Virus record (IMG/VR): IMGVR_UViG_3300044695_006401
Origin: a virus
Taxonomy: Duplodnaviria; Caudoviricetes
Strand: one strand, 5' to 3'
Length of the DNA: 64,000 bases
Shown: positions 4,668 to 48,403 of the stretch, in pieces
How positions within the stretch are numbered: position 1 is the stretch's first letter
Layout of the letters: every line of letters starts with the position of its first letter
Translations under genes and position numbers: made by a program
Notes under the pieces: generated by a model
What the model was told of the DNA's origin: nothing
What the model saw: only the letters and a program-made list of their open reading frames with translations
The model's database searches: none

Positions 4668-5113
4668 GATGCGTATTTTCCTGTTGGTCCGTAACCTCTT
4701 CCTGAAGTCCATTTATAACCCGTACCTTGGTAAGTCGGACCTTTAGTTCTCCCACTATCCCAAACAGTGTTCCCGACAGGGTTTCCCTTAGATCTATTGA
4801 CTCCACTTTCCCACTTACTTACAGTACCTCCCCCTGAAGATGCGGTATCAGTAGTGGTATCTGTGGTAGTATCTGTTGTAGTTGCAGTTTCTTCACCCTC
4901 TTCTTTGATTTCACCTTCACCCATCCCATCAGAATCATAACTATCCATTTCTTTGTCCATTTCTGGATTTACACCATATTGTGATGGTCCTGTTTGTCTT
5001 GGGTCTTGGTCGTCCGCATAGTCACCATACGGATCTTTTGTAAACTCCGTTGATCCTTCTAAGATATTCATCAAATTTTTGATGCGTGATATGCTCTCTT
5101 GTAAATTTTTCAT
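4664..5113 (-). CDS. Leader-bearing acidic low-complexity protein with three W-x-S-G repeats
   Basis: MKNLQESISRIKNLMNILE leader; TTDT repeats; KWESG/VWDSG/KWTSG. Confidence 0.75.
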   Translation of the reverse strand: MKNLQESISRIKNLMNILEGSTEFTKDPYGDYADDQDPRQTGPSQYGVNPEMDKEMDSYDSDGMGEGEIKEEGEETATTTDTTTDTTTDTASSGGGTVSKWESGVNRSKGNPVGNTVWDSGRTKGPTYQGTGYKWTSGRGYGPTGKYAS

Positions 5114-11213: not shown

Positions 11214-13448
11214 CTACCTTATTATTGTTAAATTTCCGTGATATTCTTTAACCTCATCAGTGTTTGACACACCAAACTGTAAAATCCAAGTATAAGAACC
11301 GTCAGGACATATAACATTATTGTATGTACCATCCCAACCAACTTTAGAATCCATACTTTCCCATATCACTTCTCCCCAACGATTGTAGATAGTCATGCGA
11401 TACTGATATAAATCAACACCTGAAGTTATTACCGGTAAAAAATACTGATTATGTTCATTACCATCAGGAGTAAATGTATTAGGTATATAAATCAATTCTT
11501 GCGGACATAGACTTAGAGCTACGGTAATCGTTTCAGGATTAGAAATACAACCATTACTCCATCTCACAACATCAAATTGAAATATACCTTCTTGATCCCA
11601 AGTTAAACTAATTGTGGGTCCTTGTAGTGTATCACCAAACACATACCATTCATTATAACCAACGAATGGTGATTGTGCTTCATATAAATCTTGTATTGTG
11701 TCCCCATCACATATTTCGTGATATTCATAATTAACACCAACCCTCCCATCGATTACAGGAATTACGGTCGGTCTTGGGAATACATTTACTGATATTGTGG
11801 TATCAAACCAACAACCAGATTGTGTTACAAAATAACTTACACCATCAACCCCAATAAAACCATTGTTGGGACAATAATCATTCAACCATACATTATTACC
11901 ACTAAATGTTCCTCCAGCCGGGACAGCAGTAAGAGGTGTACACCCATCGTATTCACAAAAAGGTCCGATTTGTGCAACTTGGGGTAATAAATTGAAATTA
12001 ACTAACGAAAAGTTTACAGGGTTACTCATACACCCAAATTGGTTAATTCCATAAACAGATAACACATTATTATAGAATCCACTGTTTTCACCACTTACAT
12101 CTAAATTAATTTGTTGTGTTCCTTGACCTGATGTTATATTACCTAAATTGGTTGACCAGTTATATGTCAAATTAGGAAACACACTACCAACATTAAAAAT
12201 ATTGTTTGTCGAATTATAACATAGAGTGTCTGACCCAACTATCGGTGTTAAAGTTACTTGTGGTGGGTCAACTAAGTTTACGACACCCGTAACACTACAA
12301 CCAAGTGCGTCCGTAATAGTAAATGGATATGTGCCGGCACATAAACTTAAATTTATAAAATTATTTGGTAATTGACCGTTCCACGAAATTGTTTGAACTC
12401 CGTTACCACCTTGTGCAATAATATCAATAAAACCATCGCAACTTTGAAAACAAGTTGGGTTACCGAAATTAATTATTGGTTGAGGTAGGTTTGGTGGACC
12501 AGGTAAAACAAATACTGTGTCAGGTCCTAAATTACTGCCTTGACCCGCATTACAAGTGTTCCATCCTGCATTACAGGTTGGGTATACAAACTGACAGGTA
12601 TAATTCGCACCTGCAGCAGGTGGGGTAACGGTTATTGTTGGTCCTGTACCAATAGGATTTGGGTTACCGACTTGGTACCAAGTTAAAGTTGGCAAAACTA
12701 CCGGTCCTGTTGGTGTCCATCGGTAAGCATCATTAACTGCTGTCCATACAGATGAGTTTCTACCAGGAACGGCAATTCCAATAGTACCTAATTGATTATG
12801 AATACCTTGTGTTGCTGTTCCATTCTGCCATTGTAGACAAGCAGGTTTGTTTTGAATGTAACTATCAATATAATTTGTTGATTCGTTTATCACAATATGG
12901 AATGTTCCAAAGTTATTAGTGCAAGAGAACATAGGCATGTTAGTCCAAGACACAATTAACTTTCTACAAGGAGCAACTCCTGTTGTTTGGTATCTGATCT
13001 GACCACCAATACCAGGATGCCAGTCTTGCCATGGTCCCATAATACAGTTTTTAGGGACATTTATATTACCTGTTGGTATAGTTTGTGTTGTGAAGGTTAT
13101 TGGTTGTGCTGGTGAGAAGGAAATCCACCCATTTGACCCCACCCAAAACTGAGTATAAGTCTGACCAAAGAAACAAAAGGTAAACCCAATGTTAAAAGGA
13201 CCTTGTTGTGAGTCATCAGTCATGAATAACTGATTACCTGTGTTAGTTTGATTCACATAAGGGATTGGTGCAACACTATAGTTTGTTGTTTGATTAGGTG
13301 TAGGTCCACCAACACCACACTGACTAAGGTCTGCAGTTAAGGTTGTGGATCCAACTCCACACGGAAGAATTTGGTCAGGTCCTAATGCCGGACAGAATTG
13401 CGAATACGCAAAAAGGGGGAATAAGAATAAAAGTATTAGATGTTTCAT
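11214..13448 (-). CDS. Secreted protein with T9SS type B (gliding-motility-associated) C-terminal domain, nidogen-like N-terminus and SprB/PKD-like repeats
   Basis: Signal peptide AYS|Q; GPFNIGFTFCFFG...VGSNGWISF; PTCFQSCDG...LCAGTYPFTITDALGC; YIPNTFTPDG...IYNRWGE...GWDGTYN...PDGSYTW. Confidence 0.88.
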   Translation of the reverse strand: MKHLILLFLFPLFAYSQFCPALGPDQILPCGVGSTTLTADLSQCGVGGPTPNQTTNYSVAPIPYVNQTNTGNQLFMTDDSQQGPFNIGFTFCFFGQTYTQFWVGSNGWISFSPAQPITFTTQTIPTGNINVPKNCIMGPWQDWHPGIGGQIRYQTTGVAPCRKLIVSWTNMPMFSCTNNFGTFHIVINESTNYIDSYIQNKPACLQWQNGTATQGIHNQLGTIGIAVPGRNSSVWTAVNDAYRWTPTGPVVLPTLTWYQVGNPNPIGTGPTITVTPPAAGANYTCQFVYPTCNAGWNTCNAGQGSNLGPDTVFVLPGPPNLPQPIINFGNPTCFQSCDGFIDIIAQGGNGVQTISWNGQLPNNFINLSLCAGTYPFTITDALGCSVTGVVNLVDPPQVTLTPIVGSDTLCYNSTNNIFNVGSVFPNLTYNWSTNLGNITSGQGTQQINLDVSGENSGFYNNVLSVYGINQFGCMSNPVNFSLVNFNLLPQVAQIGPFCEYDGCTPLTAVPAGGTFSGNNVWLNDYCPNNGFIGVDGVSYFVTQSGCWFDTTISVNVFPRPTVIPVIDGRVGVNYEYHEICDGDTIQDLYEAQSPFVGYNEWYVFGDTLQGPTISLTWDQEGIFQFDVVRWSNGCISNPETITVALSLCPQELIYIPNTFTPDGNEHNQYFLPVITSGVDLYQYRMTIYNRWGEVIWESMDSKVGWDGTYNNVICPDGSYTWILQFGVSNTDEVKEYHGNLTIIR

Positions 13449-15937: not shown

Positions 15938-17212
15938 ATGTTAGTAGAAAAGCTCCAAAATATCCCAAAAAGTAGTGGTTGTTACCTTTTTAAAGATAAA
16001 AAAGGTCAAATTATCTATGTAGGTAAGGCAAAATACCTCCCAAATAGGGTAAAATCGTACTTTTCTAACAAAAATCACCCAAGTAAGACCCAATTATTGG
16101 TAGAAAACATTGTAGATGTGGATTTTTTGACAACTTTAGACGAAAATTCCGCATTTATTTTAGAAAATGATCTAATTAAGACCCATAATCCTAAATTTAA
16201 CATCAAATTGAAGGATGATAGGTCAAAAAAATGGTATTTAACCCTTACAAATGACGATTTTCCTCGTTTAGAGGTTAAAAATGATACTAATTTGGACTCA
16301 GACCCTTTAATTGAGGTTCCAAGTAGTAGTATGTGTCATGAAATGTATGATTTATTACACGATATCTTTAATTTACGCTCATGTTCTTATGAATTAACAC
16401 CTGAAAACATTGAAAATAACAAGTTTAAGGTGTGTTTAGAGTCCCATATGGGTAGATGTGACGCACCATGTGTATCAAATATTAATAAATTTATCTATCG
16501 TGAGGTAATATCTGAACTAAAACAGGTGGTTTTATACAATTTTGACCAATTGCGAGGTAAATTAATTCGTAAAATGAACGCATTTAGTAAAATTATGGAG
16601 TTTGAGAAGGCAAATACTATTAAATTTAGACTAAATGCCCTTGATAAGTACGAAAAATGTGTAGAATCTGCAAGAATTGGTGGTTATTTGGTGATTGCTG
16701 ATGAGTTTAAGACTACTTTTGGTCTACAAAACACCCCAATTGACATAGAAATGTACGATAACTCCCACACTAATGGGGATTGTCAGGTGTCTGCCCTTGT
16801 TAGATACACAAATGGTAAGAAAAACACATCAGAATACCGTAAATTCAACATTAAAACCGTTGTTGGTCCTGATGATTATGCTTCATTTGATGAGGTTTTA
16901 CGAAGAAGGTTTACAAGATTACTTAAAGAACGGTCAAAATTACCAGATTTAGTGATCATCGACGGTGGTAAAGGTCAATTAGGTATAGCAAAGAGAGTAT
17001 TTGACGAACTTTCACTATCTAATCGTATAGATTTACTATCTATATCTAAAAACTCACAGCACAGGTCAGATATTATACATTTTACTGATGGAAATAGTGT
17101 AAAATTTGAAAATAAAAAGTTTTTTAACTTACTTGCAACAATTCAGAATGAGGTTCACCGATTTGTTATTACATTTCACAGAAAAAAAAGGAGTAAATCA
17201 GTTATTGGATAA
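15938..17212 (+). CDS. uvrC: UvrC excinuclease (GIY-YIG + RNase H-like domains; C-terminal HhH absent)
   Basis: GCYLFKD...IIYVGKAK.L.NRVKSYF; CLESHMGRCDAPC; YDNSH; DDYAS; LPDLVIIDGGKGQL; LQNEVHRF-type motif (IQNEVHRF) near the end. Confidence 0.92.
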   Translation: MLVEKLQNIPKSSGCYLFKDKKGQIIYVGKAKYLPNRVKSYFSNKNHPSKTQLLVENIVDVDFLTTLDENSAFILENDLIKTHNPKFNIKLKDDRSKKWYLTLTNDDFPRLEVKNDTNLDSDPLIEVPSSSMCHEMYDLLHDIFNLRSCSYELTPENIENNKFKVCLESHMGRCDAPCVSNINKFIYREVISELKQVVLYNFDQLRGKLIRKMNAFSKIMEFEKANTIKFRLNALDKYEKCVESARIGGYLVIADEFKTTFGLQNTPIDIEMYDNSHTNGDCQVSALVRYTNGKKNTSEYRKFNIKTVVGPDDYASFDEVLRRRFTRLLKERSKLPDLVIIDGGKGQLGIAKRVFDELSLSNRIDLLSISKNSQHRSDIIHFTDGNSVKFENKKFFNLLATIQNEVHRFVITFHRKKRSKSVIG

Positions 17213-33920: not shown

Positions 33921-34640
33921 TTACAATGAAGGGTCCCCTAATAATTCATTTGTTAGATCTATATACTTAGAATCAATCTCTATCCCTATAAAATCTCTAT
34001 TATTATTTCGAGCCACAATTGCTGAGGTTCCTGATCCTAAGAACGGATCTAAACATAAATCATTCTCTTCTGTCGTTAACAACATACATGTCTCTACTAA
34101 CTTCTTTGGGAATGGTGCTGGATGTTTTGTATTCTTGTCAGGATTGATTATCCACACCTCAGACTGATACTCACTTGGTATCTGATCTTTGAATACCTTA
34201 GGTTTACCCTTTGTTAACCAATAGATATGTTCTGTACACGGCAACAATAGATCCTTTCTAATGTTAGGACTTGACAGACGATTCCATATAATTAATTGAT
34301 ATACATTTAAGTCCGACTTGGAGATAAAGTCTGTAGGAAGATGCAACTTGTTCTTATGTCTTCTCGCTTTATGATTGAAGAATATTGATCCATCAGGTTT
34401 AATGATTCTCTTCATCTCATTTAATACATCGATCATCCAGTTATGGTAATCAACCTCACTTAGATCATCCCCATATGAATCATAGTCAATATTAAATTTC
34501 TTCCATACTTGATTGCCAGGTTTTACCTTACCGATCAATCCTTTCTTGTTATACGGAGGACTTGTAACTATACACGCAATTGAGTCTGATGGGATCTTTC
34601 TCATCTCGTCAATACAATCCCCCATTCTTAAATCTATCAT
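33921..34640 (-). CDS. Site-specific DNA methyltransferase (N4-C/N6-A, beta class)
   Basis: GDC...VTSPPY, HPAPFP..LV, LDPFLGSGTS, FIGIEI. Confidence 0.93.
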   Translation of the reverse strand: MIDLRMGDCIDEMRKIPSDSIACIVTSPPYNKKGLIGKVKPGNQVWKKFNIDYDSYGDDLSEVDYHNWMIDVLNEMKRIIKPDGSIFFNHKARRHKNKLHLPTDFISKSDLNVYQLIIWNRLSSPNIRKDLLLPCTEHIYWLTKGKPKVFKDQIPSEYQSEVWIINPDKNTKHPAPFPKKLVETCMLLTTEENDLCLDPFLGSGTSAIVARNNNRDFIGIEIDSKYIDLTNELLGDPSL

Positions 34641-36450: not shown

Positions 36451-36870
36451 TTACATATAATCCAAATAATCATCGTTGATTTGTGACATTTCATCAACTA
36501 AACTGAAAATTTCCTCATCAGATAAAACTGAAAGTCTTTCGAAACTTCCAGCAACTACTCTACCTATTGAATCTACTTCATTTACTCCTATTGTAACTAC
36601 ACCATAAGATAAATAAAATGAATCTACTATTTTATTTGGTGATATTTGTATAGATAGATCCCAACCTATTTCATCTTTTTCTAAAAAGTCTTTTATGTAT
36701 CTCTCAAAGACTTCTCTTGGTAGTTCTCCTGTCTTTGTATAGATTTGTGGAAGAGATAGTCCTGTCATCTTCATAAATTCATATAAACCATGTTGGTTTA
36801 AGAGTGTAAGTAATGATTGTTTTTGACTCTCTTCTCTGAGTACTTTTCTTATGTTTTCTTGTAGTTTCAT
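36451..36870 (-). CDS. Leader-bearing protein homologous to the C-terminal module of the 904-aa protein
   Basis: MKLQENIRKVLREE; QSLLTLLNQHGLYEFMKMTGL vs QSLQKLIDQHGLYDFIKMTGL. Confidence 0.8.
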   Translation of the reverse strand: MKLQENIRKVLREESQKQSLLTLLNQHGLYEFMKMTGLSLPQIYTKTGELPREVFERYIKDFLEKDEIGWDLSIQISPNKIVDSFYLSYGVVTIGVNEVDSIGRVVAGSFERLSVLSDEEIFSLVDEMSQINDDYLDYM

Positions 36871-37301
36871 TACTTTTTCTTCTTCACACAATTGGGATAA
36901 CGTTTACCAAACATAGTCTTCATACCTTTTTGAGTATATCCTTTCCAACATCTTTCTGTTAGTTCACCCTCTTTCATTTCTTGTTGACTTCTTCCTTTTT
37001 TATAATTTTGACAGTCCTGACCATCTGAAACGGAAACATATATTGCTTTTAACGGGATATAATTATTAAGATATTCTTGAAGTTCCTCACGATAAGATGA
37101 CTTAAGTTGTTCTTCAACTATCAAAATAACTAAATATTGGTCTTCAAAAGATTCTAACGCACTAACAACTAATGTACATATATTAAAATTAACATAATCA
37201 AGGATAAGATTTTTAATTAACTTTGAATACTTGTCATCAGAAATTTTATAATATGTCTCTTCCTTTAGTATCTTTCTTATATGTTCTTGTAGGTTCATCA
37301 T
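36870..37301 (-). CDS. Leader-bearing protein with C-terminal CWKGY...PNCV micro-domain
   Basis: MNLQEHIRKILKEE; LTERCWKGYTQKGMKTMFGKRYPNCVKKKK. Confidence 0.8.
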   Translation of the reverse strand: MMNLQEHIRKILKEETYYKISDDKYSKLIKNLILDYVNFNICTLVVSALESFEDQYLVILIVEEQLKSSYREELQEYLNNYIPLKAIYVSVSDGQDCQNYKKGRSQQEMKEGELTERCWKGYTQKGMKTMFGKRYPNCVKKKK

Positions 37302-37597
37302 AACTTTTCTTTTACATAATCCACCAATGGCTTCTCAAACATAATATATGAATCCCAATATTCTTGTTCAGACGAACTAAGAAATCTAAAATTCTTACTG
37401 GATGCAATAAATTGTCTTACGGTATCGTATATTGCGTCGGTTCTATCATAACCCGAATCAATTAAACCTTTCACATCATCAACCAAGTCATCTAATTTTT
37501 CTATTGTCACCCTTCTTATAATGTATGTCGGTAGATGAGACTCATTAATAACCCCCATCATTGATTTCATTCTTGATATTTGTTCTTGTAGGTTCAT
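37298..37597 (-). CDS. Leader-bearing small protein
   Basis: MNLQEQISRMKSMMGVINE. Confidence 0.8.
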   Translation of the reverse strand: MNLQEQISRMKSMMGVINESHLPTYIIRRVTIEKLDDLVDDVKGLIDSGYDRTDAIYDTVRQFIASSKNFRFLSSSEQEYWDSYIMFEKPLVDYVKEKL

Positions 37598-37905: not shown

Positions 37906-40620
37906 CTAATCCCAATAACCACCTTCTATTACTTCCATCATCCAAGAAAGAATTGATAGTAACTCGTCATTAGTTAGGGTAATAATTGATGTTAGATATT
38001 GGTCTTTTTGTTCTCTATGTCCATATTCATCAAGATGATACTCCCATATCTCAACAGCACTTTGACCACTGTCTTGTACTAATATATCGTTAACATACTT
38101 AGTATCACTCAATGGTAAATTTAACGCAAAAAGTGAACCATAATTGTCACCACTCATCCCATCATGTTCTAAAACAAATTCTCTTATATATTGTTTTAAT
38201 ATTTCTTTGGGGTTATCTACTTTACTTAATAATGTTTTTACTTGATTAAAGTCTAACCCTGTCATCTTTATGAAATCATATAAACCGTGTTGGTCTATAA
38301 GTTTTTGTAATGATTGTTCTTTATTATCAGATTCATTTATATTTTTGTCCCACCATCTTTTCTCACCACATTTTGGTGTTGAGTATGAACCAACATAGAA
38401 ATTATCTATTGGGATGTAACCTTTGATTGTTTCTTTAATATCAAGTCTTATTTTTTTAACATAATGGTTTCTTCCTACCTCAGCAAAAAACTTCTCTTTA
38501 AGGTCAAATAAACCAATCTCAACATCAATTAAATACATATCGTCTTCTTCATTATACAAAACTCTAATATCACAAACACAATCTTCATTTTTAAATGGTT
38601 CCACAATATCTTTGATGATGTCTAAATACTTTGGTTGTTTTTCTTCTGACTCGTTTATCTCATTTCCGTCATCGTCATATTCAATTTTTTCAACATCAAT
38701 AAAAAAGTCAGCGTTCTTTCTTTTATAGTGCCATACTGGTGCCCACCATGAACATAAAATAATATTTCCACCTGTCATTTCATCAATCTTATCTTCTATA
38801 ACTTCTTCAAACCAACTGTCGTAGTTTGCTGCAGTATCATCTACATCGTGATAGATTTTAATTAAAGGTTTTCCGTATATTTCATCAATTTCAATATATT
38901 CAACCTCATCAAATAACTGAAGAATCATTTGTTTAACCAAATCAAGTTTTTTATCTTCTGATTCCATTAAATCATTCTTTAATGAATCTTCCCTTAATAT
39001 ACTTCTTATGGATTCTTGTAATCTATTAGGTGAATCTTCAGGCCACGAATTTAAAACATCTTCACTACTTCCTGTTCCTTCATATTTTAGGGTTATCGCC
39101 TCTTTTGGAATATCTTGAAATGTTACAATATGTTTTGACCTTGACTCAAAATGTCTATCTTTAAACCATTTAACATAAGGAATCATTGTTGTGTCAATAA
39201 ACCAAATATCATCGTCGTATGTTGAATCAAACCATGCTCTTTTGTTTGTTGAGTTGGTTGCAAAAATTGCTGGTTTACATTTAACCCCATAACCTACATA
39301 TACTTTATAACATTCTCCCGCTCTTACTTTAAGACCGTTTTCCATTATCTTATCTCTGTACATTGGATTGGACTTATGGACAACAATATGATTGGGTGTT
39401 ATTTCTTTACCCGCAGGACTATAATCTTTGTCTTCTGATTCACTTTCTCTCAGATAGATATTTTCTTTATCTTCACACTTTGGTGTTTGTAACATATCAA
39501 CATAAATTACTACTCCTGTATAGGTTGCAATTTCTTTTGTAATGGCATCTAAGACCTCATTATACATGTTTCTTACAGCTTGGGTCACTGGCCAATATTC
39601 TGTTCCGTAACCTCCAATAAATAAAACTGTAACTTGAGGTATATTGAAAAAATCTTCATTTAATGTGATTTCATAAGAACAAATAAGATGACCATATTCA
39701 GGAAGTATCATATCTTCCATTATCATTTTTATTATTTTGAAAAGTCTTTGTGTGTCCTTTTCATTTCTGTTTGAACTCTCGTTCATGAACTTAACCTCAT
39801 CGTCACAACTATCCACATACCACGGTGTGTAGATATACACTTTGATTCCCATAGACTTTATTGAGTCCTCTAAAGAATTAAGTTCTTTTTCTATTTCAGT
39901 AATTGAGGTCGCCAAATCATCTGTTGAGAGAGTTTTTGATCGTATTTCATATTCTTTATCATCAGGATTATATTCTGCCCATATATCACAAAGCCCGTCC
40001 CAACTAACTAAAGATAACAATACATTTATTGCCCTTAGATTTTTGTCAGTTTCACGATTATCACTTTCGTTTAAACTTTCAGACTCACCATAAAGTTTGT
40101 TGTGTATTCTTTTCACATCTTCTTTTGAAAAAGGGAATTCTTCATCATGTATATCGACATCTTTGCCGTTTATTTGTCTAACATCAAAATAACCAGAACT
40201 TTTAATTTCAGGTAAGTTGGTTTCTATCTTTCCTACAGTATTGTCATTTTGAATTGTGGCAAGGATGGTTATTAGTTTCTTTTTTTCTGCTGAAGTTAAT
40301 TTACTGTCATCATAAATAAGATTTAATTCAGGCCAAGAATGTGTGCCCCATATATTTTTTTTAATACCAATTATTTCATATTCAATCGGGAATACAACAA
40401 ATCTAGGATCTCCCCAAGCGTCGTGATATTCGAAATCAACAACACCTGTTAATTGATTTAACATTTCAGAAAGTTCAAGGTCATCTTTGAAAATACTTTT
40501 AAGATTATCCAGTCCCCCAACCATTTCAGCAGCATCAAAGATATTATTATCTTCAATAAATTGTTTCATCTCTTGTTGGAGTCTATTTTCTTTTAAGATA
40601 TGTCTAATCAGTTCTTTCAT
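37906..40620 (-). CDS. 904-aa modular polyprotein-like protein containing an ART/KptA-like module
   Basis: MKELIRHILKE leader; junctions LNES, MNES, LRES, LQESIRSILRE, LMES, INES x2; modules match stand-alone neighbours. Confidence 0.8.
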   Translation of the reverse strand: MKELIRHILKENRLQQEMKQFIEDNNIFDAAEMVGGLDNLKSIFKDDLELSEMLNQLTGVVDFEYHDAWGDPRFVVFPIEYEIIGIKKNIWGTHSWPELNLIYDDSKLTSAEKKKLITILATIQNDNTVGKIETNLPEIKSSGYFDVRQINGKDVDIHDEEFPFSKEDVKRIHNKLYGESESLNESDNRETDKNLRAINVLLSLVSWDGLCDIWAEYNPDDKEYEIRSKTLSTDDLATSITEIEKELNSLEDSIKSMGIKVYIYTPWYVDSCDDEVKFMNESSNRNEKDTQRLFKIIKMIMEDMILPEYGHLICSYEITLNEDFFNIPQVTVLFIGGYGTEYWPVTQAVRNMYNEVLDAITKEIATYTGVVIYVDMLQTPKCEDKENIYLRESESEDKDYSPAGKEITPNHIVVHKSNPMYRDKIMENGLKVRAGECYKVYVGYGVKCKPAIFATNSTNKRAWFDSTYDDDIWFIDTTMIPYVKWFKDRHFESRSKHIVTFQDIPKEAITLKYEGTGSSEDVLNSWPEDSPNRLQESIRSILREDSLKNDLMESEDKKLDLVKQMILQLFDEVEYIEIDEIYGKPLIKIYHDVDDTAANYDSWFEEVIEDKIDEMTGGNIILCSWWAPVWHYKRKNADFFIDVEKIEYDDDGNEINESEEKQPKYLDIIKDIVEPFKNEDCVCDIRVLYNEEDDMYLIDVEIGLFDLKEKFFAEVGRNHYVKKIRLDIKETIKGYIPIDNFYVGSYSTPKCGEKRWWDKNINESDNKEQSLQKLIDQHGLYDFIKMTGLDFNQVKTLLSKVDNPKEILKQYIREFVLEHDGMSGDNYGSLFALNLPLSDTKYVNDILVQDSGQSAVEIWEYHLDEYGHREQKDQYLTSIITLTNDELLSILSWMMEVIEGGYWD

Positions 40621-41246
40621 TCTCCTTTTAATCTTCTGTATTCAGCACCATTAAGTTGTTCTAAATAAGTTTGTTCAATCCATCCTGGTAATCTTTCTTC
40701 CCACCACAATATATCGTTCATTTTATATTTTCCTGTTTTAAGAATATGTTCTATCATTTCTTCCTCAGTTACATCATCAGGTTTTGTTATCGGCGGAAAA
40801 CAAATATCACCGTCGTAATTAGTTATATAAAGTTCGGAAATGTAGATATCATTTCTACCCATCTTTTTTTGAATTTCACCTAAATAAGTATCATCAAACC
40901 ATTCTTCAAGTAGGTATCTTAAATAACTTACTCTCACAGGAATATCTGTGGATAAGTCATCAAATACATTTTTTGGAACACTCATTAAACCCCTATTAAA
41001 ACTCATTTCTTCAGTTTTTTTATTGTCGTCATCATTACCAAAATATAAAACAACATCCAATATTTCTCTTCCGTTTTTACAAAAATCAAAACTATGTGTT
41101 GATTCATAAGATTTTTTATGGTACATCTCAACACCATCAAAATAATCATTCAACCATCTGTAGATAAGTTGCTCTACCTTTGGTGTAGGTTTATCATATT
41201 TTCTACTAACCTCTTCTTTTAATATGTGTCTAATTAATTCTTTCAT
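40617..41246 (-). CDS. Leader-bearing hypothetical protein
   Basis: MKELIRHILKEE. Confidence 0.8.
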   Translation of the reverse strand: MKELIRHILKEEVSRKYDKPTPKVEQLIYRWLNDYFDGVEMYHKKSYESTHSFDFCKNGREILDVVLYFGNDDDNKKTEEMSFNRGLMSVPKNVFDDLSTDIPVRVSYLRYLLEEWFDDTYLGEIQKKMGRNDIYISELYITNYDGDICFPPITKPDDVTEEEMIEHILKTGKYKMNDILWWEERLPGWIEQTYLEQLNGAEYRRLKGE

Positions 41247-41569
41247 TACATTACTTCGTATAAAAACTTTTTAATAGTTCTAACAACTTTTTGTCTATAT
41301 GGGTCATTCTCGTTTGTGAAGATACTCATTGGTTCAGTAACATTGTTTTCAATAAGCATATTCAAAATACGTCTTACTTGTCTTTTTTTATTATCCCACA
41401 TAGATACACCATAATATTCATCACCTACCTTAAAATATATCTCTTTAAACTTACTTCCTCCTTCAATGTTAATCTCATTAATTTCATATCTTCTTCTTAG
41501 GAAGTTATAAACTTTTTGGTCAATCTCTTCAGATTCTTCTTTCAATATGTTTCTAATTAAATCTTTCAT
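41246..41569 (-). CDS. Leader-bearing small protein
   Basis: MKDLIRNILKEE. Confidence 0.8.
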   Translation of the reverse strand: MKDLIRNILKEESEEIDQKVYNFLRRRYEINEINIEGGSKFKEIYFKVGDEYYGVSMWDNKKRQVRRILNMLIENNVTEPMSIFTNENDPYRQKVVRTIKKFLYEVM

Positions 41570-41937
41570 CTGAACTTAAAATATTCAATATCTAATTGTT
41601 TAATATCACCCCAAGTATCTTTAATAACCATTTCTTTTGGTATCATATCATAGATGTCGTTTAATTGGTTTTTAAATACATTTTCACCTTTACCTACTAT
41701 CTCAAACTTCATTGGAAACTCAAGGTATTCCTTTAACGAGTGGTAAATAAGATTCAACTTTCCTTTGAGTGAGTCAATTAATGTTACATACTCAGGTTCG
41801 TTTTTGAGTATTTGTTTTAGGTTATCTAAACCACCAACAAACTTAGCGGCAACAAAAATATCCTCATCTTTAATTAGATCGAGGATGTCAGTCTGCACTT
41901 TAGACTCTCTTAAGATATGTCTAATTAGTTGTCTCAT
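41566..41937 (-). CDS. Leader-bearing chimeric protein
   Basis: MRQLIRHILRES; N-half like module 1 of the 904-aa protein (VGGLDNLK), C-end like 41921-42376 (MIP..M). Confidence 0.75.
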   Translation of the reverse strand: MRQLIRHILRESKVQTDILDLIKDEDIFVAAKFVGGLDNLKQILKNEPEYVTLIDSLKGKLNLIYHSLKEYLEFPMKFEIVGKGENVFKNQLNDIYDMIPKEMVIKDTWGDIKQLDIEYFKFR

Positions 41938-42376
41938 CAACAAAAGTAAAATTATCAATCATTGGTTCTTTATAATCATCTGAAAAACCACCATATCCTA
42001 TCATCTTCATATCTTCAGGGATATATTTATACATTTCTCGTAACTCTTCATTCATTTTTAAAGCCTCATCTACCCCTTCATTATCATATCTTCCCTTGAA
42101 TGGGGATAATGGTGTCACAAGGGCCTTATCTAAATAAAAAATTTTTTCATATCGGGGTTCTAAACCATAAAATTCTTTTACCATTTCATAGTCAACATAG
42201 AGGTTGATGTAAATTATCATCTTGTATGTTTCTAATTCATCTGACAATTCCCATCCTAATATAAATGGGTATTGTTGTTTTAGTGTATTAACTACAATAC
42301 CGATCCCTTTTAGAATTTTTGGTTCTTCAACTTCTTCAGTAAGAATTTGCTTTATTAAATTTCTATTAATCTTCAT
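41921..42376 (-). CDS. Leader-bearing hypothetical protein
   Basis: NLIKQILTEE; KGIGIVVNTLKQQYPFILGWEL. Confidence 0.8.
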   Translation of the reverse strand: MKINRNLIKQILTEEVEEPKILKGIGIVVNTLKQQYPFILGWELSDELETYKMIIYINLYVDYEMVKEFYGLEPRYEKIFYLDKALVTPLSPFKGRYDNEGVDEALKMNEELREMYKYIPEDMKMIGYGGFSDDYKEPMIDNFTFVDETTN

Positions 42377-42794
42377 CGTATTCTTCTTGTCTAAATGCGT
42401 ATGTCATTTTTAATATAAATTGGTTGTCGGAACTCCACTCACAACCAATAAAATACCACATCAAGTTATTATATTTACCCGTATTTCTACCAAAAGAACC
42501 ATTATCTTTAAATGAATATTTAAGTAAAACTTTATCTAATTCACCATCAATTCTACGCAATTGCTGAGTGAACTCAAAAAGGTCAGGATCTTCATTCCAA
42601 GATGTTATAATAATGTCTCCCGCAATTTCAGTATATCTTTCATCAAAAGTAATATTTTGAACTTCAACCCCGTTGATAATGTTTGTATCCACAATACTTT
42701 CTACGATATAGGGAACAGATTCAGCTGACTTGATAAATCTTTCTCTCAAACCTTCTGTTTCCTCATTTAATATATTTTTGATTAAATTTTTCAT
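42366..42794 (-). CDS. Leader-bearing protein, paralog of 43679-44113
   Basis: MKNLIKNILNEE; L.ERF...YIVES...I.FD.RY..I. Confidence 0.8.
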   Translation of the reverse strand: MKNLIKNILNEETEGLRERFIKSAESVPYIVESIVDTNIINGVEVQNITFDERYTEIAGDIIITSWNEDPDLFEFTQQLRRIDGELDKVLLKYSFKDNGSFGRNTGKYNNLMWYFIGCEWSSDNQFILKMTYAFRQEEYDED

Positions 42795-43402
42795 TTTACT
42801 TTTTTACCGTATTTGAAGAACTTTTGCTGTATATTGATCGTTCCTTTACATCCACCCGATAGTTTTACTCCATTAGAATCGAAACATTTTGGCATAGTTT
42901 TATTGAAGTAATATACCAATTTTGGTTCTCCTGAGTTAACTGAATGCATACCAGCTAATTGACCATCAACCGCAGATTCACCTCCACCAGCACTTCCTCT
43001 ACTATCAAACTGTTCGTAGGTATAACCATCATTACTTTTTCCGATTGTGACTTCCCAATTTACTGTTAATGTATTGGGATCAATATTTACGGTAACTTTT
43101 TTAATATCTACCGCGTTTAAACCTTTTGTGTTTTTATATTCTTTGATGCCATTCTGAACTTTTGTGTTGATTCTACCACCAAATCCATCCGATCTTCTGC
43201 TTTGAAATGAGTGTAATGCGTCGTATGCTCTTGGTTGACCTTCAGCTGAGTAACTTCCACTAATTACCTCATCAAGGTTATTTACAGCATTATTAATTTT
43301 TTTTGATGCATTATTTAGTCCCTTAAGAGCATAATTTTTTAACTCGTTTTGCTCAACTAAAGTTACATATTCTTTCAGTACTTGTCTTATTAAATTTTTC
43401 AT
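42791..43402 (-). CDS. Leader-bearing hypothetical protein
   Basis: MKNLIRQVLKE; TATTTAT upstream. Confidence 0.8.
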   Translation of the reverse strand: MKNLIRQVLKEYVTLVEQNELKNYALKGLNNASKKINNAVNNLDEVISGSYSAEGQPRAYDALHSFQSRRSDGFGGRINTKVQNGIKEYKNTKGLNAVDIKKVTVNIDPNTLTVNWEVTIGKSNDGYTYEQFDSRGSAGGGESAVDGQLAGMHSVNSGEPKLVYYFNKTMPKCFDSNGVKLSGGCKGTINIQQKFFKYGKKVK

Positions 43403-43428
43403 ATCTTTATAAATATATTATTAGATTA

Positions 43429-43679
43429 TTATAGTCCACATTTAGACTTAACCACATTAAAGTTTTGTAATATCTATGTAAATGTTAAAGTCCAATTGAT
43501 TAATTGGTGATTATCATTTGCACCTCCTGTTGCCGCACCAAATCCCACCCAATGATAAAAGGATAATCTTGTTTAAGTATTTTCATAGCAATATCAAGAC
43601 CTTTTTTGGATGTTTGGCTATATTCCTTTCTTTCAGGACCTTCATATTCTTTTAATATGTTTCTAATCAACTCTTTCAT
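43429..43679 (-). pseudogene. Chimeric relic: truncated leader-bearing gene (43500-43679) joined to lectin-like and LamG-tail fragments
   Basis: MKELIRNILKE...KQDYPFIIGWDL then stop at 59 aa; alternative frame reads WVGFGAATGGANDNHQLINWTLTFT* ILQNFNVVKSKCGL*. Confidence 0.6.
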
Positions 43680-44113
43680 TATGCGTCGTATTCATCTTGA
43701 TTTACCCAAAACTCTAATGTTAAAACAAATGATTCCTCACCACCTGCCTGCCATTTCATACCAATTGGCAAACAACCTAACATCCAATCATTATCAGACC
43801 CTCTTCTGATTAAACCACCGTTTTCTGTAAAAGTATATTGTTGATTAATTTTATAAACTTCATTTTCTATACTATCTGCATGTCGACCGATTGAACCAAA
43901 ATCGTGGTCCTCAAAGTATGATTTAACCGTAAGTTTTGCTCGAATTTGAATATACTTTGGGTCAAATTCAATTTCACTTATCTCTACAGAATCTATCTCA
44001 GAAGAAATATTACTTTCAAAAATATATTCGAGTTTTTGCATAGAGTTTCTAAACCTTTGTTCTAACTCACCATCTTGTTCTTCTTTCAATATGTTTTTGA
44101 TAATGTCTTTCAT
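43679..44113 (-). CDS. Leader-bearing protein, paralog of 42366-42794
   Basis: MKDIIKNILKEE. Confidence 0.8.
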   Translation of the reverse strand: MKDIIKNILKEEQDGELEQRFRNSMQKLEYIFESNISSEIDSVEISEIEFDPKYIQIRAKLTVKSYFEDHDFGSIGRHADSIENEVYKINQQYTFTENGGLIRRGSDNDWMLGCLPIGMKWQAGGEESFVLTLEFWVNQDEYDA

Positions 44114-44134: not shown

Positions 44135-45874
44135 TTATAAACCATACTTAGATTTATCCGCATTAAAGTTTTGTAGTACCTGTGAACCCGTTAATGCTGA
44201 GCTATACATTCTTACAACACCCATTCTACCATTCAACCATTGAGAAAATTGTCCTCCATTGAATGATCCAGCGTATAAAGGTGATGTTGTGTTTTTAATA
44301 CTTGTAAATGAATGAGAGTTACTTCCAACTAAACTACCATTTATATAAAGGGCTAATGAATTACTTGCAACGTTAGTCCATACACCCACAACTTGATACC
44401 AAGTATTAATAGTTAAACCTGTTGCTGGTGATGTAATTGATGTTGAACCATTACCTATTTCCATATACGTATTACCGTTGGAAATTGTTCTTATTCCATA
44501 TCCCCAATCGGCAGAGTTACCGCCATCAGTTTTTGCAATAAGGACTCTACTTGACCCTGCAATTACCGAATGGTTTACCCAAAACTCAATCGTCCAATCA
44601 CCACTACCTGGCTCGAGTAATGCATTGTCAGCAACACTAATCTGAGATGACGAACCGTTGTATGTGAAATAAGGGTTTGTAAATGTTATATTTGACATTG
44701 TACCATTTAACCCGTTACCCGATAAGTCATTTATTGTTGTACCCGCACCAGAATAACTTAACGAATTGCTTGGGTCAAAATGTAATACAAGATTACTTGT
44801 TACAGGAACTATTGGTGTCGCAGTTGGTGTCGCAGTTGGTGTCGCAGTTGGTGTAGATGTCGGTGTAGATGTCGGTGTTGGAGTTGGTTCAACAAATCTT
44901 GGAGCCAAATAATTGTATTGTTGTGTGATTTCTGAAAGACTTAATTGTCTGTTATAGAAATACATGTTGGCAACATGTCCAAAAGGTTGACCTGCCAGAT
45001 CATTATTCCCCCAACCCCAATGTGTTATTCCTCCAGCACCGAAAGCGATTGTACTTCCCACTTGTGAACCATTTATGTAGAATCTTTGAGATGCGTTAGT
45101 TCCAACTACCGCATACTGAACCCAAACGCCAGCTGAAGATGCAACATCATATCCTGAACTTTTGAAGGAAGTATCCCAATATCCTAAGGTATTAGTTCCA
45201 TTAGGGATGGTAATTGGTGTGTATTTTGGTGAGTTTGTGTAAAGTAATGTTCTAAATCCGGCAGTACTTGTTATTAATCTTGCCCAAGTAATATAAGTGT
45301 ATCCTGATGTTGGTAATGTTGGTCCAGTACCATTTACAACAACTCTGTTAGTTCCCGTAGTACAATCAAAACATTTTATACCGTTAAGAACTGTGTAAGT
45401 AGCGTTGGTTAATGTGTGATCATACCCACTCGTTATATCATAAACTGTAGATCCTGTCCCTGGATAACTTAAACTTGTATATGCATCTAATTGTATGATT
45501 AAACCTAAGGTATTAATACCTGAGTATGATGTCCAATAACCATTATCGTTTAACCACTCTTTGGCAATTGCGGGATCTGTGAATGTTTGTGAATATGATT
45601 TATTAACTAACGCTAAAAAACTATTGTCGTTTTTTAAAACACTCCTTTTGAATCCTAAATACGCATTAACAAACTCAGGGTTAGGTTGATTTCCTTGTGT
45701 GTTCGGGTAAGCAACAACATAACCTAAATCTTCATCAGGGCCGTTCCACCATCTTACACCACCTACACCTCCAACATAATCTATATTATCAACACCTATA
45801 GCTAAATTACCAATTTGTATTGTGCCCGATATTGTTGATCCTGTGTTATACGCAAAAGGTCTCGATGTTGCCAT
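44135..45874 (-). CDS. Two-LamG (ConA-like) domain protein with Pro/Thr linker; probable virion adhesin or fibre
   Basis: L..D...SY.G.G.T..D.S motifs twice; WVQYAV/WYQVVGV...LYING; PTPTPTSTPTSTPTATPTATP linker. Confidence 0.85.
   Translation of the reverse strand: MATSRPFAYNTGSTISGTIQIGNLAIGVDNIDYVGGVGGVRWWNGPDEDLGYVVAYPNTQGNQPNPEFVNAYLGFKRSVLKNDNSFLALVNKSYSQTFTDPAIAKEWLNDNGYWTSYSGINTLGLIIQLDAYTSLSYPGTGSTVYDITSGYDHTLTNATYTVLNGIKCFDCTTGTNRVVVNGTGPTLPTSGYTYITWARLITSTAGFRTLLYTNSPKYTPITIPNGTNTLGYWDTSFKSSGYDVASSAGVWVQYAVVGTNASQRFYINGSQVGSTIAFGAGGITHWGWGNNDLAGQPFGHVANMYFYNRQLSLSEITQQYNYLAPRFVEPTPTPTSTPTSTPTATPTATPTATPIVPVTSNLVLHFDPSNSLSYSGAGTTINDLSGNGLNGTMSNITFTNPYFTYNGSSSQISVADNALLEPGSGDWTIEFWVNHSVIAGSSRVLIAKTDGGNSADWGYGIRTISNGNTYMEIGNGSTSITSPATGLTINTWYQVVGVWTNVASNSLALYINGSLVGSNSHSFTSIKNTTSPLYAGSFNGGQFSQWLNGRMGVVRMYSSALTGSQVLQNFNADKSKYGL
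44815..44880. repeat. 12-bp coding tandem repeat (TPTA/TPTS linker)
   Basis: TGTCGCAGTTGG x3 then TGTAGATGTCGG x2. Confidence 0.8.
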
Positions 45875-46751: not shown

Positions 46752-46841
46752 TTATTTCTTAGACCACTCTTGGTATTCCCTCCTATCTTTTATGATTGTA
46801 GGAGTGATAAATGATATTACAAATAACCAAAGATATATCAT
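46752..46841 (-). CDS. 29 aa hydrophobic peptide
   Basis: MIYLWLFVISFITPTIIKDRREYQEWSKK; ATGA overlap with upstream stop. Confidence 0.45.
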   Translation of the reverse strand: MIYLWLFVISFITPTIIKDRREYQEWSKK

Positions 46842-48403
46842 TTTCTAATTATTAACTTTTTAGTTTTAACTTTGTTTACTCTGATGTAGTAAACACCATT
46901 CTCTAAGTTACGAAGATCAATTTCATTATCATTAACAGAATCAATTACTCTACCACTTTGGTCGATCAACTCGATATATGATTTCTTACTTACATAAACT
47001 ACTTCACTTGCTGGGTTAGGATAGATTCTAAAGTCATTTGAGTTTTCTTTAACCGACGCTAAATCACCAAAGATTTCACTTGGGAAGCTTGCTCCTACGG
47101 CTGCCGTTGATCCTTCAATTAAGCGATAGTCAGGTGTCAATCCAAGTGGAACAAATGGTGTCACCCAATTGATATTTGAATGTGTCGATATTGAGTCGTT
47201 TGCATGTTGTGAGAAGTATACCGATAATACACCAAGTGTTGTTGTAATACAAACAGTATTAGGGTTAAAATTAGAAAGAATGTTACTGTGGAAGTGCATT
47301 GTGTCCCCTAAAATATTATCTTCTACAGGTAGACCTTCAATGGATAATCCCTTCTCCCAGCCAGTAACAATGGTGTTGAAAACAGAAGTTGCCGTATTTC
47401 TTCTTAATCTGAAAGCCTTTTCAAATTTCTCACCTATTGGAAGGGAAACCGTCCCATCGCTCTTCGCGCCAATAATTGTGAAGTTAGAAAAAATAGGTGC
47501 CGTCAATGGTTGAGCCACACTACCTTGTGCGTCATTATCCGATTCGAAACAATTTGAGTCACCTACGGCGTCTGACAAATTTTCATTTCTGATCGATAAA
47601 CCAAATTGAACATTACCTCTGTATCCAAAGTCTGTGTCAAAGTCATCATCAACACATGAATATGATATTAAATGTTTGCAGTTTACAGTTCCTCCGAACC
47701 ATTCAAATGAGTCATCACCACAATTACTTACTTGAACATAGTCAACCAAAGTCTGATTACCGACAGAACCAAAAGTTAGTCCGTTTATTTCTTTATTTGG
47801 TTCAAGTGCAATACCCGCAAACTCGATTCTTACAAATCTAATCACACCTGAATCATCGTTGTCATTAGTCCCTCCGTGTTGTGTGAAGTTTGTGGGACTT
47901 AAACCCTCTATGTTTGCAACACCACCAGGTTGATTGTTTTTAGCATTACCCAAAACAATAACACCACCCCAATCTCCTTCGTTTCTTTGGCCGATCGGAT
48001 TGTTTGATGTAAATACGATTGGATTAAATTGTTCACCATCAGCAAGTAGTCTTGAACCTCTTGTGATGATTAATGTTCCTTGTGTTTGATAGTCACCTCT
48101 GATGATCGTACCAGGAAGTATTGTAAGTGTTGCGTTGTTTTTAACATACACTTTGTTTTGTAATAGGATAACTCCTGACCAAGTTGTATTTGTTGTAACA
48201 TCTGAGCTAACTGTAGTTTGTGTAGTTGGGTATACTGTATTGTTAGGATCCCAATTAGACCAACCATAAGTCCAATCAGTTGCTGGTGAGTTATCTGTTA
48301 CAGGAAACGCTCCTCTATAATCTGTTGGTGTCCAAAATGTGTTTTGTGCGTTTGTTGTTAGAACACACATTAAAAATAAGATACTTGCGTAAATTTGTTT
48401 CAT
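46838..48403 (-). CDS. Secreted beta-helix protein with T9SS type A sorting domain
   Basis: Signal peptide TTNA|Q; DDSGVIRFVRIEFAG, DDSFEWFGGTV, DDDFDTD; IYPNPASEVVYV...IDLRNLENGVYYIRV...KKLIIR. Confidence 0.88.
   Translation of the reverse strand: MKQIYASILFLMCVLTTNAQNTFWTPTDYRGAFPVTDNSPATDWTYGWSNWDPNNTVYPTTQTTVSSDVTTNTTWSGVILLQNKVYVKNNATLTILPGTIIRGDYQTQGTLIITRGSRLLADGEQFNPIVFTSNNPIGQRNEGDWGGVIVLGNAKNNQPGGVANIEGLSPTNFTQHGGTNDNDDSGVIRFVRIEFAGIALEPNKEINGLTFGSVGNQTLVDYVQVSNCGDDSFEWFGGTVNCKHLISYSCVDDDFDTDFGYRGNVQFGLSIRNENLSDAVGDSNCFESDNDAQGSVAQPLTAPIFSNFTIIGAKSDGTVSLPIGEKFEKAFRLRRNTATSVFNTIVTGWEKGLSIEGLPVEDNILGDTMHFHSNILSNFNPNTVCITTTLGVLSVYFSQHANDSISTHSNINWVTPFVPLGLTPDYRLIEGSTAAVGASFPSEIFGDLASVKENSNDFRIYPNPASEVVYVSKKSYIELIDQSGRVIDSVNDNEIDLRNLENGVYYIRVNKVKTKKLIIRK

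Follow-up and report, generated by a model that had tools for sequence, protein, structure and literature searches.

An uncatalogued family of predicted ADP-ribosyltransferase-fold domains carried as a cassette of a modular phage protein

We examined a 64,000-nucleotide stretch (hereafter, the window) of the caudoviricete virus record IMGVR_UViG_3300044695_006401 and found that the fourth of seven cassettes in a modular protein is a domain that almost certainly has the ADP-ribosyltransferase (ART) fold, and that forms a new sequence family within this known superfamily. The protein, P0001, is encoded by an uninterrupted open reading frame (ORF) of 904 amino acids (aa) at 37906..40620, defined from the ORF list and its translation; it and all of its parts discussed below lie on the minus strand. 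The original prediction, made from the sequence alone, had placed a KptA/Tpt1-like ART module at 39071-39412, which corresponds to residues 404-516. When the translation was re-checked, all five motifs quoted in its favor were present within residues 413-509 (VVHKS, 413-417; DKIMENGLK, 423-431; PAIFAT, 450-455; IWFIDT, 472-477; and HIVTFQDIPKEAI, 497-509). The location held, with the true domain slightly longer, extending over residues ~400-517 (YSPAGKE ... YEGTG; 39070..39423) as judged from a family search, an alignment, an AlphaFold2 (AF2) model, fold searches and the ratio of nonsynonymous to synonymous substitution rates (dN/dS).

When 1.84 billion representative proteins were searched exhaustively with phmmer, homologues of the domain turned up in 312 clusters (counted at 50% identity) at E ≤ 1e-3; 167 of these passed E ≤ 1e-10 and 51 passed E ≤ 1e-30. 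The matches always spanned query positions ~13-127, equivalent to residues 405-519, and many family members are stand-alone proteins of 110-170 aa, indicating that the domain is self-sufficient and not a piece of a larger fold. Residues ~400-517 are thus an autonomous domain, and purifying selection acts on it across 12 phage loci (median dN/dS 0.11, range 0-0.24). In an alignment of 84 domain sequences with identities down to 33% (alignment A1), the best-conserved columns coincided with the motifs singled out by the original prediction. Arg422, Ile425, Asp471 and Asp488 are invariant (84/84), and His415 (83/84), Gly429 (83/84), Phe453 (81/84, with Tyr in the other 3), Ile504 (82/84), Ile475 (81/84), Leu511 (81/84), Gly515 (79/84), Thr500 (77/84) and Ser417 (72/84) are nearly so. 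Position 468 is aromatic throughout and is followed by Asp469 (75/84) and Asp470 (73/84). The domain copies are mildly acidic on the whole (median pI 5.8; 59 of 84 acidic), which lends no support to a nucleic-acid target, yet is compatible with one.

The family is abundant in uncultured phages. Neither tblastn with the 904-aa ORF nor megablast with 20 kb found a match in 50,697 GenBank phage records. A search of 185,579 species genomes with a narrower alignment (A2) and only the pattern FDSTYDDD, which leaves room for divergent cellular members, gave a single match, on a 3.3-kb contig of a metagenome-assembled genome (MAG) labeled 'uncultured Bacteroides sp.' Five consecutive genes on this contig (L021:200-2939) begin with peptides of the form MNLQE.I.RI..MM or MKLI..I, the last of them encoding a 135-aa stand-alone ART domain, and the contig is probably phage DNA binned with the Bacteroides MAG.

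The original prediction had proposed structure prediction and a Foldseek comparison with ART folds as its check, and both came out in its favor. The AF2 model of the domain, built on A1, has a mean predicted local distance difference test score (pLDDT) of 91.4 and a predicted template-modeling score (pTM) of 0.85, and shows six main strands with two to three helices in the strand order of Tpt1, 4-5-2-1-3-6. The best 18 Foldseek matches in the PDB were all Tpt1/KptA RNA 2'-phosphotransferases (best E 6.2e-5), with ART toxins next. VIA-align, a wide search of 48,161 PDB representatives that is independent of Foldseek, likewise ranked Thermococcus KptA (Z 9.7; root-mean-square deviation (rmsd) 2.4 Å over 89 aligned residues, chain residues 77-180) and mouse Tpt1 (Z 9.1) ahead of scabin (7.0), CC0527/DUF952 (6.5), TreX (6.3), PltA (6.1), DarT1 (5.7) and Arr (5.4), and all 50 of its 50 rows were ART-fold proteins. 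Among predicted structures, the AFDB clusters returned DarT-type DUF4433 proteins (TM 0.62) and RNA 2'-phosphotransferases; 30 of 30 Swiss-Prot AFDB models were KptA RNA 2'-phosphotransferases, always matched in their C-terminal half; and BFVD and the ESM Atlas returned small uncharacterized phage proteins, a 'putative RNA 2'-phosphotransferase' of phage PaBG and Tpt1 clusters.

These concordant fold searches, together with weak links at the level of sequence, make the ART-fold assignment secure, with Tpt1/KptA as the nearest neighbor. Nothing meaningful came from searching the entire ORF or the domain alone with Pfam, PHROGs and NCBIfam, from searching the 84 domain copies one by one with Pfam, or from phmmer against PDB sequences. 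A profile built from A1 ranked KptA first in the PDB at a non-significant E of 0.6, aligning YH-x-S...I...GL-P with YHGT...I...GLKP of TkoKptA and HIVTF..IP..aI with its last two strands, and hhalign against E. coli KptA gave 69% probability over the same 28 columns. In one relative, P0252, the segment spanning the His and Phe strands matched Pfam PARP positions 21-92 at E 1.2e-5, with 25.4 bits against a cut-off of 26.7. Upstream of the family domain, residues 40-125 of P0252 hold a second, different set of ART-like motifs (GYHVS...I..RGL...GSVYF), suggesting two ART-type modules in one polypeptide.

The conserved residues suggest that the domain belongs to the His-type (H-Y-E) branch of the ART superfamily, as a compact version of ~118 aa. 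The split β-sheet core typical of the superfamily is present, as are the β1 His-x-Ser and the β2 aromatic residue. Tpt1 provides the reference for these positions: in CthTpt1 the RNA lobe (residues 1-85) carries Arg18, His19 and Arg68, and the NAD+ lobe (86-182) carries Arg121 (PMC6333775). The Tpt1 HGT motif binds the NAD+ adenosine ribose, CthTpt1 Ile111 stacks on the adenine, and Arg121, Arg139 and Arg140 cage the phosphates (PMC6333775). In the phage domain, His415-Lys-Ser417 on strand β1 (39370..39378) is the conserved counterpart of HGT, aligned to YHGT both by hmmsearch of TkoKptA and by hhalign with E. coli KptA; the same two methods align Ile425, which stands with Arg422 on helix α1 (39346..39357), with the adenine-stacking Ile of Tpt1. 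Phe453 in the AIFAT segment of strand β2 (39262..39264) occupies the aromatic position of the H-Y-E triad. The NAD-adenosine motifs His415-x-Ser417, Ile425 and Phe453 are thus kept.

The remaining conserved positions set the domain apart. Ten residues after Ile425, Gly435 (Gly or Ser in 82 of 84 copies) sits where Tpt1 has Arg121, and the acidic run Asp469-Asp470-Asp471 (39208..39216), placed at the start of β3 by the strand limits of the model, falls roughly where Tpt1 has its caging arginines; this run may have a role in catalysis or ligand binding. Secondary-structure order, hidden Markov model (HMM) alignments and alignment ranges were used to map Asp471, Asp488 and His497 onto known ARTs. 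By this mapping, Asp471, beside the His strand, and Asp488 (39157..39159), at the end of β4 where the variable loop before β5 begins, are candidate catalytic acids. The Arr triad His19/Tyr49/Asp84 is required (PMC13246000), and the offsets of the VIA-align ranges put Asp84 near Asp488, making the latter a candidate counterpart. Strand order and the hmmsearch alignment with TkoKptA would place His497 (39130..39132), at the start of β5, in the position of the canonical catalytic Glu.

The family is not, however, a branch of Tpt1. The best structural match is with the NAD+ lobe of Tpt1/KptA (PF01885; PDB 9ld3, 7yw2 and 6e3a), and the two have in common a six-strand split sheet, the His-x-[ST] motif, the Ile...Gly-Leu helix, the C-terminal '..IP..aI' strand and the absence of a conserved catalytic Glu. 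The phage domain nevertheless matches only KptA residues 77-180 and lacks the N-terminal winged-helix RNA lobe. It also lacks Tpt1's Arg-His-Arg-Arg tetrad, three members of which lie in the missing lobe while the fourth (CthTpt1 Arg121) corresponds to Gly435, and it has an extra helix between α1 and β2. PF01885 had no match at E ≤ 10 in the protein or the domain, nor any in the 84 members or the record. The match to the NAD+ lobe only, Gly435 in place of Arg121 and the Asp-rich loop indicate that the domain is not a Tpt1 orthologue, so that of the KptA/Tpt1-like reading the fold stood and the family membership fell. Whereas Tpt1/KptA is a housekeeping enzyme, the phage domain is a putative cargo cassette.

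Comparison with other ARTs of phages and toxins places the family among small His-type domains. T4 Alt is a large R-S-E (VIP2-type) ART, whereas the phage domain is a 118-aa His-type domain without sequence similarity to it, with a β1 His, a β2 Phe and no Glu-x-Glu; R-S-E toxins also score below Tpt1 in VIA-align (Z 7.0 or less). ART-PolyVal domains (PF18760; Iyer et al. 2017, PMC5512222) are similarly small and occur in multidomain, presumably injected proteins, but PF18760 does not match the phage domain, which is a separate sequence family, and the cassettes described here are bounded, unlike ART-PolyVal proteins, by protease-type sites and leader copies. Both domain types can share a chain: P0217 (2,925 aa) carries LPD38 and ART-PolyVal domains next to the family domain and P0202 carries ART-PolyVal with it, the PF18760 match falling in a different segment in each. 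Other members adjoin HD, GNAT, GIY-YIG or DUF2237 modules. The minimal His-type ARTs, namely Arr (PF12120), DarT/DUF4433, DUF952/CC0527 and the Rhs toxins TreX/TreTu, are close in size (110-140 aa) and fold (Z 5.4-6.5), and the His/Tyr/Asp set of Arr, which has no Glu, is a possible parallel to His415/Phe453/Asp488. The phage domain differs from them in having no sequence-model match and its own conserved set (Arg422, Asp469-471).

The chain that surrounds the domain is modular. When seven segments of the ORF were compared by BLAST with 120 homologues, each behaved as an independent cassette that may be kept, missing or moved to another place in the order. The ART cassette occurs in 87 of the 120 and is often 93-99% identical where the first cassette is only 44-50% identical, indicating cassette shuffling. 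A full-length AF2 model (pTM 0.27), used only for locating linkers, has pLDDT below 50 at residues 179-188, 274-288, 390-410, 517-554, 649-662 and 753-767, and these segments are the junctions LNE/S, MNE/S, LRE/S, LQE/S...LRE/D...LME/S, INE/S and INE/S. Foldseek matches of the full-length model to the ribosomal protein eS7 and to FliF had an rmsd near 19 Å and were judged meaningless. In the full-length model, the cassettes at 187-282, 283-393, 554-658 and 659-764 have a common layout of helix, β-hairpin and long helix, sometimes with an extra strand; none has a family or confident fold match, and the four may be paralogues.

Sites of the [LI]-x-E type known from T4 head cargo, where a change of the Glu to Asp blocks processing, flank the ART cassette on both sides. 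Upstream, L390-R391-E392 followed by Ser (39445..39453), read from the translation and lying in the low-pLDDT segment 390-410, is a candidate gp21-type site seven residues before the domain. Downstream (38962..39021; translation and low-pLDDT segment 517-554), LQE/S, the embedded leader LQESIRSILRE/D and LME/S give three L-x-E within 20 residues. Complete leader copies stand at several internal junctions, here LQESIRSILRE at 534-544. The domain starts ~15 residues before β1, directly after a linker or leader. In the close domain subfamily, 77 of 78 unique upstream contexts have an [LIVMF]-x-E no more than 15 residues away, usually 1-2 residues ahead of YSPAG. Of the 66 unique downstream contexts, 65 have one no more than 25 residues away, and in 57 the Glu is followed by Ser; as a background, the motif occurs in 97 of 738 windows inside the domain (13%).

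The ORF itself begins with a leader, MKELIRHILKE (40588..40620), which ends in L-x-E and is shared with the neighboring genes at 40617-44113, as judged from motif counts and codon variation. Nearly all of the small genes beside the ORF (40617-44113 and 36451-37597) start with MK[EDN]LIR.ILKE or MNLQE.I.R., and among the 117 ORFs the leader motif is N-terminal in 14, at positions 13-15 in 2 and deeper in none. The leader codons vary synonymously, which argues that conservation acts on the peptide. In stand-alone ART copies, leaders such as MNLQE.IRRILRE and MK.LIRKILKE immediately precede the domain, and more distant stand-alone copies carry other leader types such as MKIVITESQ. The leader-gene array, on the minus strand like the ORF, comprises about ten small genes with unrelated bodies. 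Two of its stand-alone genes, 36451-36891 and 41566-41958, are similar to the ORF's last and first cassette, respectively (compare LLNQHGLYEFMKMTGL with LIDQHGLYDFIKMTGL, and VAAKFVGGLDNLK with DAAEMVGGLDNLK), indicating that cassettes exist both free and fused in one genome.

The source record, from an uncultured lake phage, is 78.6 kb long with a CheckV completeness of 27%. Close homologues of the 904-aa ORF are found on contigs of 240-291 kb, and type IX secretion sorting domains occur in genes neighboring the ORF, a combination indicative of a Bacteroidota jumbo phage. Three related genomes of 272-291 kb that are 93-99% complete (G001, G003 and G004) carry one copy of the module each and encode a Peptidase_S77 homologue of T4 gp21 (PF03420; E ~1e-23, above the curated cut-off) with a Gp23-type capsid gene (E ~1e-64) a few kb away. 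In G002-G004 (loci L006-L008) the module lies in an open frame of 428 aa, compared with 904-1024 aa here and in G001.

In T4, gp21 cuts after L/I-x-E, and internal proteins bear capsid targeting sequences of 10-19 residues that are removed by this cut (PMC9026906). The T4 ART Alt is packaged in the head, is shortened at each end and enters the host by ejection (PMC9026906). Head-packaged ARTs have been inferred widely and are common in myoviruses (PMC9503650), and ARTs have likewise been inferred inside polyvalent proteins (PMC9503650, PMC5512222). The proteins described here would share a mode of delivery, proposed below, with Alt and the T4 internal proteins: their leaders of 10-20 aa end in [LI]-x-E, relatives encode a gp21-type prohead protease, and the enzyme would probably act early and on the host. 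Unlike Alt, the ART is one bead in a seven-cassette chain, or a stand-alone protein in other phages.

We propose that the domain is an NAD+-using effector that is packaged by means of a leader, freed by the prohead protease and injected, a chain of events that, taken as a whole, we consider slightly better than an even bet. The domain would most likely use the His-x-Ser, Ile and Phe elements that it has kept to bind NAD+, and would transfer ADP-ribose to a host molecule early in infection, perhaps using Asp471 or Asp488, or a nucleophilic substrate, in place of the canonical Glu. It would serve as a swappable cargo cassette, found behind a leader of 10-20 residues as a stand-alone protein in some phages. 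The leader would target the protein to the prohead core, and the [LI]-x-E motifs of leaders and inter-cassette junctions would be gp21 cleavage motifs at which the protease releases the module, which would then be ejected with the DNA as are T4 Alt and the internal proteins. The flanking [LIVMF]-x-E motifs, the shared leaders and the gp21 and gp23 genes of relatives fit such release and Alt-like injection. The delivery as a polyprotein fragment, analogous to T4 Alt, that formed part of the original prediction thereby gains circumstantial support. The NAD+ use, catalytic residues, target, cleavage, packaging and injection are our inferences, whereas the ORF, the family with its purifying selection, fold and conserved motifs, the flanking sites and the gp21 and gp23 genes of relatives are observed.

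Several observations weigh against this proposal. The canonical catalytic Glu position on β5 is not conserved, being His (His497) in 56 of 84 copies and otherwise variable in A1, so that classic protein ADP-ribosylation chemistry is not assured. The phosphate-caging Arg positions of Tpt1 are here Gly435 and the Asp-rich loop 469-471, and NAD+ binding, if any, must differ from that of Tpt1. The sequence links to known ART families all fall below significance thresholds, and the residue equivalences to known ARTs were drawn from alignments rather than coordinate superposition and are to be read as provisional. The [LIVMF]-x-E motif is short and lies in linkers rich in Glu and Lys, and the contexts counted are related sequences rather than independent events. 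No protease gene was found in the 27%-complete 78.6-kb record itself, and G002, rated 93% complete, shows neither gp21 nor gp23.

The variable Glu position and the loss of the Tpt1 phosphate-binding arginines to Gly and Asp would also be expected if the domain had kept the ART fold without transfer activity, binding NAD+, immune signals derived from ADP-ribose or a host protein, and acting after injection as a sponge or inhibitor. We consider such a pseudo-enzyme unlikely: the invariant charged residues Arg422, Asp471 and Asp488, with the near-invariant His-x-Ser, are what one would sooner expect of an active site than of a binding surface, and Tpt1 and Arr show that an ART can be active in the absence of the canonical Glu. 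An Atlas-neighbor link to viral proteins that carry the Thoeris anti-defence domain Tad6, which acts by binding rather than by catalysis, was not confirmed among 96 multidomain relatives and serves as a lead only. The 904-aa chain might instead remain whole, packaged or made in the cell as a single multidomain effector, in which case the [LI]-x-E junctions and embedded leaders would be flexible linkers and gene-fusion scars and the ART would act without being released. Polyvalent proteins of 2-15 domains, ARTs included, do act as single polypeptides (PMC5512222, PMC9503650), and members of this family occur in polyvalent proteins. We rate this outcome as improbable as well, given that a hydrophobic residue-x-Glu-Ser element is all that very different flanking contexts have in common (77/78 and 65/66, against 13%), that intact leader copies persist at internal junctions and that relatives encode a gp21-type protease; an uncleaved polyvalent protein would be compatible with ART activity in any case.

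That the domain is a true Tpt1/KptA RNA 2'-phosphotransferase for tRNA or RNA repair is very improbable. Tpt1/KptA proteins are its best structural matches and KptA is known from jumbo phages, but the domain architecture contradicts membership: the RNA lobe with three of the four essential residues is absent, the fourth is Gly435, and PF01885 matches neither the protein nor the record. We give practically no credence to a chance resemblance, that is, to noise motifs in an AT-rich, Lys/Glu-rich ORF with no discrete domain. Such an explanation would fit the lack of a match to any curated family model, but it is refuted by the family search, the AF2 model and the VIA-align list of ART-fold proteins, as 312 clusters, stand-alone copies, a confident model, uniform ART-fold matches and a dN/dS of 0.11 are all at odds with noise.

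A broader version of the injected-effector proposal, which is possible but which we put forward only tentatively, is that Bacteroidota jumbo phages run T4-like capsid targeting on a large scale, with dozens of unrelated cargo modules carried singly or in protease-cleavable polyproteins. Among the cargo would be a new injected ART family whose active site departs from the canonical one in having His/Phe together with invariant Arg and Asp residues and no Glu, and whose target might be a defence component or a nucleic-acid end. Five related records yielded no Macro domain, and the genomes searched no antitoxin or immunity partner.

Head-packaged ARTs have a known example in T4 Alt, and their presence has been predicted in many myoviruses. 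The novelty lies in an ART family that has no Pfam, PHROG or NCBIfam model, is missing from the GenBank phage records searched and is abundant in uncultured phages (its 312 clusters), and that keeps the NAD-adenosine motifs of Tpt1 alongside different invariant charged residues. It would represent a known strategy pursued through an unusual cassette architecture. If active, the domain would extend the ART superfamily by a new type of active site and would be a new injected enzyme of host takeover or anti-defence in phages of Bacteroidota, which are poorly studied hosts. As a recognizable enzyme inside the leader/[LI]-x-E system, it is the most practical handle on that system: the domain is small, with a confident predicted fold and clear conserved positions for point mutants, and the cassette borders are an explicit, checkable prediction of the cleavage products.

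Other genes of the window were noted in passing. Three phage ORFs end in Por_Secre_tail / CHU_C type IX sorting domains (2541-4712, 11214-13448 and 46838-48403, minus strand), suggesting that the host belongs to the Bacteroidota and that the phage uses its secretion signal; two of the three also have peptidoglycan-binding or PKD domains. A UvrC-like protein with GIY-YIG and UvrC RNase H domains (E 1e-45) is encoded at 15938-17212 (plus strand), and a DNA methyltransferase (phrog_67, E 3.5e-57) at 33921-34640 (minus strand). Directly upstream of the leader-gene array, a 579-aa protein (44135-45874, minus strand) combines a Thr-Pro repeat linker with a Laminin_G_3 / concanavalin-like domain and matches 'virion structural protein' PHROGs.

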